Below, piece after piece: positions 7,660 through 11,614 of a stretch of 25,492 bases of DNA. The stretch is taken from positions 1 through 25,492 of the forward strand of contig QQUL01000260.1 in NCBI GenBank assembly GCA_008501565.1. The letters run 5' to 3'. The notes beneath the pieces are model-generated. The model ran no database searches. It was not told the DNA's origin and saw only the letters and a program-made list of their open reading frames with translations. The DNA comes from Armatimonadota bacterium (GTDB lineage: Bacteria > Actinomycetota > Acidimicrobiia > Spongiisociales > UBA5794). The position numbers and the translations under genes were made by a program. Within the stretch, counting starts at the first letter, position 1. Each line of letters opens with the position of its first letter.

Positions 7660-8895
7660 ATGATCGAACTCCACCCACACGACATGGCCCACGGCGGTGA
7701 AGCGGTTGCGAGAAGCGACGGAAAAGCGCATTTCGTTGCGGGCGCCATGCCGGGCGAAGTCGTCGTCGGAACAGTCATCGAGGACAAGGGTTCATGGGCC
7801 CGGGTTGCCCTCGTTGAGGTGCGCGAGCCGGCCGAAGGTCGCAGGGATGCACCGTGTCCGCATGCCGACCTGTGTGGCGGTTGTCAGTGGCAGTTTGCCG
7901 ACGAGTCGATCCAGCGAGACTGGAAGCGAACGACGATCATCGGCCAACTCGAGCATCTTGGCCGGGTGGCCTCCCCTCTCGTCCATCCGACGATCGACAC
8001 GGGTCATCAACTTGCGTATCGAAACCGGATGGACTTTCACATCGTCGATGGGAAACCCGCTCTGTACCGAGCACGGTCGAATGATCTTGTCCCGCTGAGC
8101 ACATGCCTTCTCCTGGCACCGCCGCTTCAAGAAGTATTCGATCGACTTGGCGACCTCGGCGGGGTCTCACGCCTGACACTTCGATGCGGGATCCGGACAA
8201 ACGACACGGTTGCTTTGATCGAAGGAGAGACACCAGATGATGTCGAGTCGTGGGGTGTCCCGGTGATCCACGTGGATGGAACTTCGTTGCGCACCGTGAT
8301 CGGCGATCCCGTGCTTTCGGAAATCGTCGACGATGTTCGGTTCGAAATCCCACCAGAGGGCTTCTTCCAGAACAACACATACGGCGCAGAGACGCTCGTC
8401 TCACTCGTGCGCGACATCCTTGAGGTCACGGAAGAAGAAACACTTCTCGATGGCTACTGCGGTATCGGCTTGTTCGGGGCGACGGTTGGTCGGGATGCAC
8501 ATCGCGTCATCGGTATGGACTCTTCACCGCGAGCGATCAAGTATGCACGACGCAACATGGCTGCAGCAGGTGTCGATGCACACATGCGTACCGGGTCGAT
8601 GACGAGGGACATCGAGTCGTTCGATGAGTACTGGGATGTCGCTGTCGTCGACCCGCCGCGCAAGGGCCTCGGGGAGCGGGGAGTTGCGGCGGTCACCTCC
8701 GCCATGCCGCGGACCATCGCGTACGTTTCGTGCGATCCTGCATCATTTGCGCGCGACACGAGGCTGCTCGCCGAGTCTGGCTACAGCTTCATTGAAGCGA
8801 CCCCGGTCGACATGTTTCCTCAGACGTTCCACGTCGAAATCGTGGGGAGATTCGATCGAGCACTTCTCGGCGACGACGAGGGTTCGGACGAATAG
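7660..8895 (+). CDS. TRAM-domain class I SAM-dependent RNA m5U methyltransferase (RlmD/RlmCD family)
   Basis: TRAM-like start MAHGGEAVAR..FV.GA.PGE, Fe-S motif CPHADLCGGCQWQ, YRNRM, FFQNN, DGYCGIG, DPPRKG and catalytic YVSCDP. TACGCT lies 6 nt before the ATG at 7660, suggesting a leaderless start. Confidence 0.92.
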   Translation: MIELHPHDMAHGGEAVARSDGKAHFVAGAMPGEVVVGTVIEDKGSWARVALVEVREPAEGRRDAPCPHADLCGGCQWQFADESIQRDWKRTTIIGQLEHLGRVASPLVHPTIDTGHQLAYRNRMDFHIVDGKPALYRARSNDLVPLSTCLLLAPPLQEVFDRLGDLGGVSRLTLRCGIRTNDTVALIEGETPDDVESWGVPVIHVDGTSLRTVIGDPVLSEIVDDVRFEIPPEGFFQNNTYGAETLVSLVRDILEVTEEETLLDGYCGIGLFGATVGRDAHRVIGMDSSPRAIKYARRNMAAAGVDAHMRTGSMTRDIESFDEYWDVAVVDPPRKGLGERGVAAVTSAMPRTIAYVSCDPASFARDTRLLAESGYSFIEATPVDMFPQTFHVEIVGRFDRALLGDDEGSDE

Positions 8896-8897
8896 CC

Positions 8898-9512
8898 CTA
8901 CATCCCGTCGAGAATCTCCTTGCGCTTGCGCTCGTACTCTTCCTCTGAGACCAGTCCTTCATCGCGCAGGGCTGCAAGTTTGCGGATCGCTTCAGCGCCG
9001 TCATCTTTCGGACGCTTGACGCCACCACCCGCCGCAAGATCCATCGAACGCGCTTCACGAGTCTTGTAGAGAATCGCCTGGAATGTGTCCGGGTGCGGGA
9101 TGTTGTCGAAGTCGCTCTGTCCGGTCTCCCCCGCCGACTCGACCAGGAGATCCCCCGCCCCGAGGATCCGTTCGAACACCGACTGGGAAAAGTTGACGTT
9201 TGCGATGCCCTCAAGGGGGATTTCGATTCCACGCTGGGCGATGAGGCCGCGGCGCGTGATCAATCGCTCTGTGGTGAGCACGTAGCGGGTGAACCACCAA
9301 TCGACGAGTGGCCTGACCACGAACCACACGAGAACGATGACCAGAGCGGCAACCTTGAACCAGAAGCCAGCATCAAACCAGTATGCGAGCAGCCCGAAGA
9401 CGACAAGTGCGCCGACCCCCCACAAGGCGGGAACGAACAGCAGTTTCCAGTGTGGGCGAAACGAAGTGACGATCGATTCGCCTTCGGTGAGTGCATCTTC
9501 GGGCCAAGGCAT
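8898..9512 (-). CDS. Membrane protein with bacterial PH domain (bPH_2) and C-terminal SHOCT domain
   Basis: FRPHWK start, two TM helices, YVLTTERLITRRGLI...IPLEGIANV...ERILGAGDLLVESAGE (bPH_2), and LAALRDEGLVSEEEYERKRKEIL (SHOCT). Confidence 0.9.
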   Translation of the reverse strand: MPWPEDALTEGESIVTSFRPHWKLLFVPALWGVGALVVFGLLAYWFDAGFWFKVAALVIVLVWFVVRPLVDWWFTRYVLTTERLITRRGLIAQRGIEIPLEGIANVNFSQSVFERILGAGDLLVESAGETGQSDFDNIPHPDTFQAILYKTREARSMDLAAGGGVKRPKDDGAEAIRKLAALRDEGLVSEEEYERKRKEILDGM

Positions 9513-9519
9513 GGGAGAG

Positions 9520-9638
9520 AGCTTACAGCTTTCGGCTTTCAGCTCACAGCTTCAGAGCAGGGAAACCGAACAGTGAACCACGACAACCATGGGGACGAAA
9601 CGACCCATGCTGAAAGCTGAAAGCTGAGAGCTGAAAGC
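9520..9638. repeat. Inverted pair of heptamer tandem arrays, (AGCTTTC)n at 9520-9558 and (GCTGAAA)n at 9609-9638
   Basis: agcttac-agctttc-ggctttc-agctcac-agcttca and gctgaaa-gctgaaa-gctgaga-gctgaaa-gc; reverse-complementary, same family as 3102-3206. Confidence 0.9.
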
Positions 9639-9661
9639 AACGAGCGAAGCGAGTCCACGCG

Positions 9662-9700
9662 AGAAACCCCAAGGAAGCCGGAGCCCCCTTGGGGTGTTCT
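9662..9700 (-). terminator. 3' terminal hairpin / intrinsic terminator of candidate ncRNA A
   Basis: Minus strand ACCCCAAGG-GG-GC-UCCG-GC-UU-CCUUGGGGU followed by UUCUC. Confidence 0.75.
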
Positions 9701-10024
9701 CAGTGCCAGCCCTTGCAGTCTTTCGACCTCCGGTCTGGCGCCCCGCCGGTGTTGCCACCTGCGGTGCGGTCGATGCGAACCGAGGCTCGCACCTGTACCT
9801 TCCGGTGACCCTCGCCGACCGAAGTCTGCGTGAGTAGGGCCGAAGCCCTGCGCCCGAGAGCGCTACCTTCCGGTGTTGGCTGGTCCGTCGCCTCCCCTTG
9901 CGGTTCGGTTCGGTTTCCCGCCCGTTCCCATCCGTTGCCGGTTGGGAACCCCGCTGATTGACGGTCCCCGGCTTGCGCCGGTTGCGTTCGAGCGGTCCGG
10001 TTTGGGTTTCCCCTCTCCGGTTCC
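9662..10024 (-). ncRNA. Candidate highly structured ncRNA A (~360 nt), family unassigned
   Basis: On the minus strand about 12 hairpins carry stable tetraloops: GGG-GAAA-CCC, CCGGC-GCAA-GCCGG, CCG-GCAA-CGG, CGG-GAAA-CCG, CC-GCAA-GG, ACC-GGAA-GGU (twice), AGGGC-UUCG-GCCCU, GAC-UUCG-GUC, UGCGAGC-CUCG-GUUCGCA, GGUG-GCAA-CACC and GUC-GAAA-GAC. It is bounded by a promoter and a terminator and has no credible ORF. Confidence 0.75.
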
Positions 10025-10027
10025 AGA

Positions 10028-10107
10028 ACAATGCCATGAGTCGTGCACCAATTCAAGCCAGATCGCTTGTTGGTTTTCGCGAGTGACGAGTAGTTTTCGC
10101 GAGGTGC
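10028..10107 (-). promoter_or_regulatory. Promoter of ncRNA A with upstream GCGAAAAC direct repeat
   Basis: -35 TTGAAT (10056-10051), 17-nt spacer, -10 CATTGT (10033-10028); GCGAAAAC at 10100-10093 and 10080-10073 (20-bp period). Confidence 0.7.
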
Positions 10108-10120
10108 GCAAAGGACAACC

Positions 10121-10262
10121 GATTACAGATTTCAGATCACGGACAGGACACCGTCGAACTCGCGGCACCCCGATTCCATTATCCAATATCGAGGTTCGTC
10201 TTGGTTTCGCTTCCGGAGTCTGAATCCAAAATCCGTAATCCGTAATCCGAGATCCCAGATCC
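10121..10262. repeat. Inverted pair of heptamer tandem arrays, (GATTACA)n at 10121-10146 and (GTAATCC)n at 10221-10262
   Basis: gattaca-gatttca-gatcacg-gacagga and tgaatcc-aaaatcc-gtaatcc-gtaatcc-gagatcc-cagatcc; a second heptamer family, lying between the two candidate ncRNAs. Confidence 0.85.
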
Positions 10263-10313
10263 AACAACAAACCCCAAGGAAGCTGTGGCCGAAGCCGTAG
10301 CCCCCTCGGGGTT
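10262..10313 (-). terminator. 3' terminal hairpin / intrinsic terminator of candidate ncRNA B
   Basis: Minus strand AACCCCGAGG-GGGCUAC-GGC-UUCG-GCC-ACAGCUU-CCUUGGGGUU followed by UGUUGUU; the stem is nearly identical in sequence to that of ncRNA A. Confidence 0.75.
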
Positions 10314-10542
10314 CGTTGCCCTGGATGCCCGACGGTCGCCCGCCCGGTTCCCAGGAGTGTCCTTTCGGCTGCCAGCTAGGCCGTCACGTCCGATTGGACT
10401 GATCTCTCGAAGGCTGGGCTCCCTCTTGAGATCGCTGCCTCTGCCGAAGCAGAAGCCCGGCCCCGGTTTCCCGGGTGGGTCAGCCGAAGCCGATCCCTGC
10501 CGCACTTTCCAGGTTCACCTCAAGGGTTCACCTCTCAAGCAC
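10262..10542 (-). ncRNA. Candidate structured ncRNA B (~275 nt), family unassigned
   Basis: Minus-strand hairpins UCGGC-UUCG-GCUGA, CCCGG-GAAA-CCGGG, UCUGC-UUCG-GCAGA, GAUCUC...GAGAUC, GUCC-AAUC-GGAC, CC-GAAA-GG, CGG-GCGA-CCG and AGG-UGAA-CC (twice). The 5' GUGCUUGA can pair with UCGGGCAU just before the terminator. It is bounded by a promoter and a terminator. Confidence 0.72.
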
Positions 10543-10547
10543 AAGCG

Positions 10548-10628
10548 AACCTAGAGGGGATCTCTGCGGGTCGCAACCGCGATCTCTGGTTGGTTTTCGC
10601 GTAATAGCAGGAGTTTTCGCGGAGGTGC
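10548..10628 (-). promoter_or_regulatory. Promoter of ncRNA B with upstream GCGAAAAC direct repeat
   Basis: -35 TTGCGA (10576-10571), 17-nt spacer, -10 TAGGTT (10553-10548); GCGAAAAC at 10620-10613 and 10600-10593, with the same spacing to the -35 as in promoter A. Confidence 0.72.
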
Positions 10629-10689
10629 TGAGAGCTGCCGTTGATGACCTCGCGAACACCGCAGCGTTCTTGAGGTCGGAATCCGAAAG

Positions 10690-10711
10690 TGTCACACGGT
10701 GGCGGTATGGT
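10690..10711 (+). promoter_or_regulatory. PafBC/RecA-NDp-like DNA-damage promoter (TGTCAC-N10-TATGGT), leaderless start
   Basis: TGTCAC 10690-10695, 10 nt, TATGGT 10706-10711; the ATG begins 7 nt after the -10 (10718). One mismatch to TGTCRG. Confidence 0.6.
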
Positions 10712-10717
10712 CATGCC

Positions 10718-11614
10718 ATGACCTCCGATACCCACGAACGAACAACCCTCACGACCCTCTCACCATCGCGGGCGAGCGATTTCAAGCAGTGCCCACAGAT
10801 GTACAAGTTCAAGTCGATCGACCGTATCCCGACGGAGCCAACGATCCATCAGGCACGGGGCACGGCGGCGCATCTGGCTCTCGAACGGCTCTTTGAACAG
10901 CCGAGGGCGCAGCGAACCCCCGAGGCTCTGTACCGCCTCTTCAGGGATGCATGGGCAGAACTCAAGAAGACGGAATACCCAGACCTGTTCGATTCTGTCG
11001 AGGACGAGCGAGCATGGGGAATCGAAAGCCTCGGGCTGCTTGCGGGATACTTCTCGATCGAGGACCCAACCTCCTTTGAGCCCGAAGCGCTGGAAATGGA
11101 CCTCACCGTCGCTATCGATGACATGACCATCCGAGGCATTCTCGATCGGATGGAACGCATCACGACAACCGCGCCCGACGGCACCGAATCCGAACTCCTC
11201 GTCATCACCGACTACAAGACGGGCAAGGCACCGCCTGAGCGATATGCATCCCAGGCCTTCTTTGCCCTCAAGATCTACGCATTGTTGATTCGCACGACGC
11301 AAGGCATCACACCCGATCGCGTCCGGTTGTTGTATCTCAACGGACCAACCGAGTACACGCTCGACATCACCGACAGCCAACTCGACGCGATGCATCAGCA
11401 GCTCACGGCGTTGTGGCAGGCAATCAACAAGGCGATCCGCACGGATACGTGGCCGACGAGTCAGTCAGTACTCTGCGACTGGTGCGACTTCAAGGACACC
11501 GTGTGCCCGGCATTCAATACCGCTGCTGAGATAGCAGTGAACCGCGCAGCGATTGACGCTGCAGCAGCCGCGAAGATCGCTCGACCAACGTCAGATTCTG
11601 TCAGTGGTACCTGA
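10718..11614 (+). CDS. Stand-alone RecB-family PD-(D/E)XK nuclease with 4-Cys Fe-S staple (resembles the mycobacterial Rv2119 type)
   Basis: LSPSRASDFKQCP, GTAAHLALE, RGILDRME, ITDYKTG and CDWCDFKDTVC; 298 aa from ATG 10718. Confidence 0.88.
   Translation: MTSDTHERTTLTTLSPSRASDFKQCPQMYKFKSIDRIPTEPTIHQARGTAAHLALERLFEQPRAQRTPEALYRLFRDAWAELKKTEYPDLFDSVEDERAWGIESLGLLAGYFSIEDPTSFEPEALEMDLTVAIDDMTIRGILDRMERITTTAPDGTESELLVITDYKTGKAPPERYASQAFFALKIYALLIRTTQGITPDRVRLLYLNGPTEYTLDITDSQLDAMHQQLTALWQAINKAIRTDTWPTSQSVLCDWCDFKDTVCPAFNTAAEIAVNRAAIDAAAAAKIARPTSDSVSGT

Follow-up and report, generated by a model that had tools for sequence, protein, structure and literature searches.

The Locus and Its Two RNA Units

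Throughout this paper, the window is the whole stretch of DNA that we analyzed, 25,492 nucleotides of a contig from a 2.14-Mb MAG (G000) that is 84.6% complete. Within the window lies a 1.2-kb stretch that holds no credible gene, flanked on one side by a gene for a bPH_2-SHOCT membrane protein (8898-9512, minus strand; assigned by Pfam) and on the other by a gene for a PD-(D/E)XK (RecB-like) nuclease, which is followed in turn by adnAB-like helicase-nucleases. The nuclease gene likely starts near 10715 (MTSDTHERT...) and not at the GTG at 10475: the GTG-started ORF, 10475-11614, overlaps the second of the two units described below, and the PDDEXK_1 Pfam match covers residues 14-261 of the shorter form. 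The stretch carries two RNA units in tandem on the minus strand, and it is the first of them, RNA A (9661-10024, about 361-364 nt), with which we are mostly concerned; the case for it is built from folding, a census of tetraloops, covariation, and metatranscriptome contigs.

Read in the direction of transcription, unit A opens with a putative operator (10074-10101, minus strand) of two direct CGCGAAAA boxes (10101-10094 and 10081-10074), set 20 bp apart from start to start, the proximal one ending 17 nt ahead of the -35. The predicted promoter (10028-10056, minus strand) has a -35 of TTGAAT (10056-10051), a 17-nt spacer, a TG (10036-10035), and a -10 of CATTGT (10033-10028). When 12 relatives—ten of the same genus and two of other genera—are aligned, both boxes are invariant in all 12, and the invariant promoter columns are the TTG of the -35, the TG of the extended -10, and A2 and T6 of the -10 (T55 T56 G57, T75 G76, A79, and T83); the boxes are present before nearly every homologue. 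A strict pattern scan for sigma-70 promoters and terminators, whose consensus is of the E. coli type, called neither the promoter nor the terminator of RNA A, and therefore both the promoter and the end were assigned from conservation. The invariant promoter letters set the 5' start at 10024-10021, where A10021 is itself invariant and lies 7 nt past the -10, and the 3' end falls within a UUUCUC tail, hairpin and tail stopping at about 9661. These conserved elements indicate that RNA A is transcribed from its own sigma-A-type promoter. A reading of the sequence alone, made before this work, had proposed an RNA on the minus strand at 9662-10024, and it had coordinates and strand right: the predicted ends agree with the promoter letters, the 3' hairpin, and the RNA contigs.

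The sister unit, B (10265-10621, minus strand), has its boxes at 10621-10594 and a promoter that reads TTGCGA-N17-TAGGTT; its RNA is about 280 nt long, and its 3' hairpin lies at 10312-10269. Its support comes from repeats (D1, D3, and D4) and from conservation in relatives, whose RNA contigs map to it at 10350-10435; our covariance model of the family (R1, described below) matches it weakly (10266-10491, E 1e-4). The bodies of the two RNAs differ, and what they have in common is the type of their 5' module and the 3' hairpin, which in RNA B is related to that of RNA A and has an inserted UUCG stem. The body of RNA A is single copy, a BLAST search of the whole gap against its own genome having returned no second copy and only dispersed heptamer arrays. 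For these two RNAs, small Acidimicrobiia genomes (~2-4 Mb) give over 1.2-3 kb of the locus to non-coding DNA.

Two further features of the spacers deserve mention. Repeats with a unit of 7 bp, (GCTGAAA)n and (GGATTAC)n, form inverted arrays just past each RNA, at 9521-9638 and 10121-10262, and the first type has about 50 BLAST matches on many contigs, which marks it as a dispersed element. Between B and A, most genera (loci L054, L058, L044, and L033) carry on the opposite strand an ORF of about 205-229 aa whose N terminus is signal-peptide/lipobox-like, and the window's genus does not.

Could the region of RNA A encode a protein? An ORF (9552-10037, minus strand) overlaps it and would specify an arginine-rich protein of 161 aa, and its frame is open in the window's genome. 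This ORF, however, has no Pfam match, and its frame is shifted by 1-nt indels in the nearest relatives, which are 85-91% identical over the aligned unit. Substitutions fall evenly over its codon positions (11/6/7, 9/7/8, and 20/19/17), with no third-position bias, and changes in the region are compensatory in stems. Judged by these comparisons, the coding reading is already refuted; we give it practically no chance and do not count the ORF as a gene. With neither its frame nor any codon-position bias conserved, the RNA is non-coding, as had been supposed.

A Chain of Local Hairpins

Among the checks that the sequence-only reading had named for itself were folding against dinucleotide-shuffled controls and covariation among homologues, and both come out in its favor. 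On the minus strand, 9662-10024 has a minimum free energy (MFE) of -181.8 kcal/mol, as compared with -151.7 +/- 5.5 for dinucleotide shuffles (z -5.45; 0 of 100 shuffles equaled it), and on the plus strand the folding z is -2.6. The minus-strand MFE structure has 13 hairpins, of which 7 are capped by GNRA loops, 3 by UNCG loops (UUCG, UUCG, and UCCG), and 2 by CUCG loops, so that GNRA or UNCG tetraloops close 10 of the 13; by type, the census lists GAAA, GCAA, GGAA, UUCG, CUCG, and UCCG. The plus strand has 0 such tetraloops and 200 dinucleotide shuffles average 0.32, with a maximum of 3, and the claim that the tetraloop signal is specific to the minus strand holds. The earlier count had been of about nine GNRA and three UNCG-like hairpins; the MFE shows seven GNRA loops, and about nine are reached when one counts a second GGAA hairpin and a GCAA hairpin, both of which are absent from the MFE.

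Base pairs covary. An RNAalifold consensus of 31 sequences contains 51 pairs, with two-sided changes in 28 of them. In the 3' domain (147 nt), 98% of alignment cells are paired and 13 pairs have changed on both sides, a number reached by 0 of 500 column shuffles; in a control in which the structures were slid by 1-3 columns, 1-5 two-sided pairs were found. The best-covarying helix of this conserved domain is the hairpin GGUGCGAGC-CUCG-GUUCGCAUC (9772-9793, minus strand), which has 9 pairs, 6 of them changed on both sides among 27 sequences, and 96% of its cells paired. Within the genus, the local hairpins show 12 two-sided and 35 one-sided changes vs. 38 breaks (465 cells), and several of those breaks concern pairs that were proposed by the single-sequence MFE alone. 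The pattern as a whole indicates that the structure of RNA A is under selection.

Which structure, though, is being kept? It had been suggested that RNA A might adopt two competing folds, in which a long-range pairing of GGAACC with GGUUCC would alternate with a local hairpin, GUUCCCA/UGGGAAC. The long-range pairing is broken in four of seven cells, and the segment is absent from the short forms of the family, which speaks against the suggestion; the local hairpin, for its part, is maintained within the genus by one two-sided and two one-sided changes that keep it paired. The consensus folds, whether of 18 or of 31 sequences, show local hairpins in a chain without a closing helix. A repeated 12-mer, TACCTTCCGGTG, does occur exactly twice, at 9796-9807 and at 9864-9875, as had been reported, and the concerted evolution of its copies was examined as a possible sign of a shared partner or of an alternative closing helix. 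The second copy is already altered in the closest relatives (to CGCTGGAAGGTA in G005 and G004 and to CGCCTAACGGTA in G008). As a feature of the family, the repeat was rejected: the longest common word averages 5.5 within species vs. 4.7 between species, and only two lineages show it.

What is constant across the family lies at the two ends. The 5' module, P1 (9997-10020, minus strand), reads CCGG-AGA-GGG-GAAA-CCC-AAA-CCGG—an outer stem, a 3x3 purine internal loop, a 3-bp stem, and a GNRA loop—and it stands at the 5' end of all homologues, with an outer stem that covaries (CCGC/GCGG, CUGA/UCAG, and CUGC/GCAG), and is tandemly duplicated in some genera. The 3' hairpin, or putative terminator (9662-9700, minus strand), consists of a 13-bp stem, ACCCCAAGGGGGC-UCCG-GCUUCCUUGGGGU (9695-9666), with an AGAA/UUCU extension; a tail, UUUCUCGCG, starts inside the 3' arm and continues beyond the listed end to 9658. 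Across 31 aligned homologues, this hairpin (with its UYCG loop) and the tail are letter-invariant except at loop position 2. The stem covaries at the level of the order only: in G280 it reads CCCCGAGAGGG/CCCUCGGGG, with GAGAAC and UUUCUCGCG unchanged. Seen as a terminator, the 3' end is a 13-bp GC-rich stem followed by UUUCUC (only three consecutive U), on which the strict scan makes no call, and it is where the RNA contigs stop.

Between these ends, whole hairpins have been gained and lost, and members of the family range from 268 to 493 nt. The transcript as a whole strings together 12-14 local hairpins, with GNRA, UNCG, or CUUG tetraloops at their tips. In the short forms (a local-pair alignment of 18 sequences, 268-324 nt), the 5' module has a 4-bp stem, a 3x3 purine loop that is usually AGA/GAA, and GGG-GNRA-CCC; it is sometimes duplicated, and a second module of the same type comes next, followed by about eight more hairpins with GNRA, UUCG, or CUUG caps, a purine-rich linker, and the terminal hairpin. 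The linker (GGAG/GGAA), unpaired and placed between two hairpins, is found in all members. RNA A of the window is a long form, in which additional tetraloop hairpins have been inserted in the 5' half.

Distribution and Synteny

How far does the family extend? The covariance model R1 matches 83 of the 133 genomes of the bacterial family, 44 of its 62 high-quality genomes, and 18 of its 30 genera, counts that are to be read with the model in mind, built as it is on the 3' 147 positions only, so that distant members keeping just the 5' part would escape it. A class-wide sample gave matches in 12 of the 39 genomes drawn from the same order, with three other families represented, and in 0 of 111 genomes of other Acidimicrobiia orders. 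Among the genomes searched, the RNA family thus appears to be confined to one order of uncultured Acidimicrobiia. A search for the exact 3' hairpin pattern in 185,579 species (one genome per species) found it in 30, nearly all labeled Acidimicrobiia, and in nearly every one of these, two boxes 20 bp apart sit 283-508 nt upstream of the hairpin. The same architecture recurs in more than 30 species.

Wherever a contig is long enough, the synteny is fixed: the divergent nuclease/adnAB genes, B, A, the bPH_2 gene on the strand of the RNAs, and a convergent methyltransferase gene. Even in G280, which belongs to another family, the gene order is the same over the extent of the locus that is present (with the methyltransferase gene unmatched), and both RNAs open with the 5' module type and close with the 3' hairpin. 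A public record named UBA5794, from the same genus as the window, is identical to G004 over RNA A. Two contigs with the full Acidimicrobiia synteny (L045 and L051) are filed in MAGs labeled Kiloniellales and Acidobacteria, probably through an error of binning or labeling.

Expression

Parts of RNA A are present in six metatranscriptome runs from four studies, and four of the six runs were compared with the window over 8800-11200. Two 3 Mb metatranscriptome assemblies, made from the same sample as the probable source of the DNA, each contain one contig of 221 nt (9705-9924), with word depths of 419 and 504, and no other contig on 2.4 kb. A marine-sediment run gave a 291-nt contig (9699-9989, with two differences), and a freshwater-sediment run covered 9691-10012 in pieces. 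Overall, the RNA contigs extend from 9658/9691 to 10012. In the four runs compared over 8800-11200, there were no contigs on the bPH_2 gene, the spacer at 10015-10338, or the nuclease gene, and the sole other piece, 35 nt long (8803-8837), fell within the methyltransferase gene, at the border of the region compared; the absence of contigs from the flanking genes argues against DNA carry-over. Neither the strand nor the exact ends of a transcript can be read from the contigs, and contig depth is no measure of relative abundance from gene to gene. RNA A is expressed as a discrete, abundant RNA. At least one of the two RNAs is among the few transcripts to be assembled from very small metatranscriptomes.

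An Operator in Common with Replication Genes

The exact CGCGAAAA pair occurs twice in the genome, both times at the locus of RNA A and RNA B. If up to one mismatch is tolerated in each box and the boxes may stand 11-13 bp apart, there are five sites (and 0 for a reversed control pattern), and these precede RNA A, RNA B, dnaA, dnaB, and nrdJ. The three sites away from the RNAs (loci L071-L073), which take the form CGCGAAAA-N11/12-CGCGAAAA, are at G000 C95:1435 (dnaA), C229:2134 (nrdJ), and C337:96 (dnaB), and the ORFs behind them are, by Pfam, DnaA, a class II ribonucleotide reductase, and DnaB. The nrdJ site matches the geometry of the RNA promoters, with 17 nt to TTGCGT and then 18 nt to TACAAC, and it recurs in G017. 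The dnaA site lies about 350 nt ahead of the start codon and recurs in G005, G007, and G017. The weakest of the five is the dnaB site, where each box is off by one letter and no promoter is clearly recognizable at the usual spacing.

Sites resembling the box pair with two mismatches were also seen in relatives (G017:C6:1025895-1025963 and G007:C2:437474). On contig C229 of G000, at about 2260-2330, between the boxes and the start of nrdJ, there are palindromes that by eye resemble NrdR boxes (ACACCCAACATCTTGGGGGTGT and CCCCATATGTTGTGTG); nrdJ would therefore have two layers of control.

Discussion

We have tried to settle what kind of gene occupies a stretch of bacterial DNA that holds no credible protein gene. 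In our judgment it is very probable that the minus strand at 10024-9661 encodes a stand-alone small RNA of about 364 nt, structured and abundant, which is member A of a tandem pair within a family of its own. The family is new and lies outside every catalogued one. The whole window has no Rfam match for RNA A at the gathering score, and 9300-10900 has no credible one at E ≤ 10, where only chance matches appear (mir-80, on the heptamer hairpin, and CRISPR-DR19, both on the first type of heptamer array, and others below threshold). Searches of the literature on Ms1 synteny, on ncRNA in the Acidimicrobiia, on UBA5794, and on structured ncRNA in Actinobacteria turned up no description of it, and the sole genomic study of the UBA5794 order is silent on non-coding RNAs. 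Actinobacteria are not generally known to have 6S RNA, CsrA, or Hfq, and little has been learned of the abundant structured RNAs that they do have. The family is ready for the RNA catalogues, with alignments A2 and A3 and model R1 as a seed; its host lineage is widespread and uncultured, and it offers two handles, an RNA with which to search for partners and a DNA motif whose binding factor, once found, would delimit a replication-linked regulon.

By kind, RNA A resembles the known stand-alone, abundant, structured small RNAs, and what sets it apart is that it is built as a hairpin array, that its genes come in a pair, and that its operator is linked to replication. Several identities were considered and rejected. 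RNase P RNA, tmRNA, and SRP RNA are all found elsewhere, with strong scores, in G005 and G017 (tmRNA and SRP RNA also elsewhere in G007, and SRP RNA elsewhere in G000). A sponge of the CsrB/Rsm type was also considered: CsrB/CsrC and RsmX/Y/Z, which act by protein titration, are like RNA A many-hairpin chains whose hairpin number varies by species and are often sibling genes under one regulator, but the loops of RNA A are generic GNRA, UNCG, and CUUG tetraloops that share no single motif such as a repeated GGA, its host is actinobacterial, and CsrA (PF02599) was not found in G000, G005 (99% complete), G007, or G017. Nor was the Ro/TROVE protein (PF05731) of Y RNAs found in the four genomes searched for it. 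An antitoxin of type III (ToxI-like) was set aside, there being no tandem repeat in the body of RNA A and a bPH_2-SHOCT membrane protein gene downstream of it, as was an RNA of a phage or mobile element, the body being single copy in the genome and unmatched in the phage and plasmid collections. The sibling pairs OmrA/B and PrrF1/2 likewise consist of neighboring genes that each have a copy of the promoter, operator, and terminator, but in the present pair the 5' module type and the 3' hairpin alone are common to both.

What, then, might such an RNA do? We propose that RNA A is a long-lived RNA that works in trans by binding protein, whether as scaffold or as decoy; that its frozen 5' module and 3' hairpin serve for recognition and protection; and that its level tracks the replication-gene programme set by the factor that binds the boxes. 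Such a stable scaffold or decoy, tied to the replication programme, is the most likely reading of its role, held tentatively. Protein binding is suggested because the frozen parts are structured modules at both ends, because the body evolves by gain and loss of whole stable hairpins, and because there is neither a conserved single-stranded seed nor any special complementarity to the co-regulated leaders. It counts against a scaffold or decoy that the loops are generic stable tetraloops and not one repeated binding motif, and the 3' hairpin may be invariant for some reason besides recognition by a protein. Taken whole—gene, uncatalogued family, and protein-binding role together—the explanation is one that we hold with moderate confidence, since great confidence in the gene and the family is there combined with much lower certainty on function.

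Other roles have to be weighed against this one. One of them had been raised at the outset: RNA A might be a functional analogue of Ms1 and 6S RNA, an abundant RNA that binds the core or holoenzyme of RNA polymerase and buffers its availability. The 6S model (RF00013) is unmatched at E ≤ 1 in G000, G005, G007, and G017, and so the niche looks unfilled; the size, abundance, and actinobacterial host of RNA A would suit the part, and like Ms1 (of Mycobacterium and Streptomyces) it is a structured, stand-alone RNA on the order of 300 nt with its own promoter and a poorly conserved sequence. Ms1 was itself discovered through synteny, not homology, its sequence being poorly conserved (PMC9130861), and its neighborhood holds an oxidoreductase and a HAD-IB hydrolase/phosphoserine phosphatase (PMC9130861). 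On each feature that was tested, however, RNA A fails to resemble these RNAs. The window has no match to RF00013 at the gathering score, nor has 9300-10900 at E ≤ 10; the long irregular rod, closed by pairing of 5' and 3' ends around a large central bubble, is missing, the only long-range pairing of the MFE being the one that is broken in relatives (four of seven cells); and the neighbors are the PD-(D/E)XK nuclease and the bPH_2-SHOCT protein. An operator common to dnaA, dnaB, and nrdJ would also not seem to be the stationary-phase pattern known for Ms1 and 6S RNA. We regard the analogy as unlikely. That same operator is what recommends a different possibility, a trans-acting base-pairing RNA that tunes the replication and cell-cycle genes with which it is co-regulated, in the manner of CcnA, the cell-cycle-controlled short base-pairing ncRNA of Caulobacter, whose promoter is likewise under the control that governs replication and cell-cycle genes; the purine-rich unpaired linker present in all members could serve such pairing. 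But we found neither a conserved single-stranded seed nor complementarity to a target, conservation is greatest at letters that are base-paired, and duplexes between RNA A and the dnaA, nrdJ, and dnaB leaders have energies within those of shuffles (z -0.83, +0.22, and -0.25, by a crude test). Since 360 nt of stable hairpins would in addition be atypical for RNAs that work by pairing, we think this role rather improbable.

The abundance of RNA A and its very high density of GNRA loops might bring to mind the self-assembling or tertiary-folded ornate RNAs, of the ROOL, GOLLD, and OLE kind, in which those loops would make contacts within or between molecules. With these RNAs and the raiA motif, RNA A has in common a well-supported covarying structure, high expression, and a narrow phylogenetic range. 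The raiA motif, OLE, ROOL, and GOLLD have multi-stem junctions and pseudoknots, whereas RNA A has local hairpins only, with no covarying multi-helix junctions or closing stems, no similarity to the Rfam models of any such class even at E ≤ 10, and no 11-nt tetraloop receptor that we could see in reading its sequence by eye. A hairpin number that varies freely (268-493 nt) is also hard to square with one precise three-dimensional fold, and we judge an ornate RNA very unlikely. The bPH_2-SHOCT gene is co-oriented with RNA A and lies 40-170 nt downstream of it in every genome, and terminated leaders can accumulate; one might therefore see in RNA A a cis-acting leader or attenuator of that gene, with the 3' hairpin as a regulated terminator. 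Against this stands RNA B, which has the same promoter, 5' module type, and 3' hairpin and in most genera faces the convergent lipoprotein-like ORF, with no co-oriented gene to lead into. The distance from RNA A to the bPH_2 gene, moreover, varies and here includes a heptamer-repeat insertion, no conserved pairing alternative to the 3' hairpin was seen in the alignments, and no RNA contig continues from RNA A into the gene. We would be most surprised if a leader were the answer.

A bolder reading would make RNA A and RNA B the RNA component of an undescribed replication/cell-cycle regulon of the Acidimicrobiia, in which they would stand with dnaA, dnaB, and nrdJ under CGCGAAAA-N11/12-CGCGAAAA and would form an abundant hairpin-array ribonucleoprotein acting on replication initiation, the nucleoid, or the box-binding factor itself. 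We consider this doubtful; if true, it would make of the two RNAs a new class of bacterial regulatory RNA. A hint of it comes from the conserved tail, UUUCUCGCG (9658-9666, minus strand), whose reverse complement when read as DNA, CGCGAGAA, is an inverted one-mismatch copy of the operator box. Read in that way, the tail (TTTCTCGCG) is a box-like sequence in inverted orientation. The inverted copy may be a third half-site or may be due to chance, and a CGCGAGAA variant also belongs to a box-pair match in G017.
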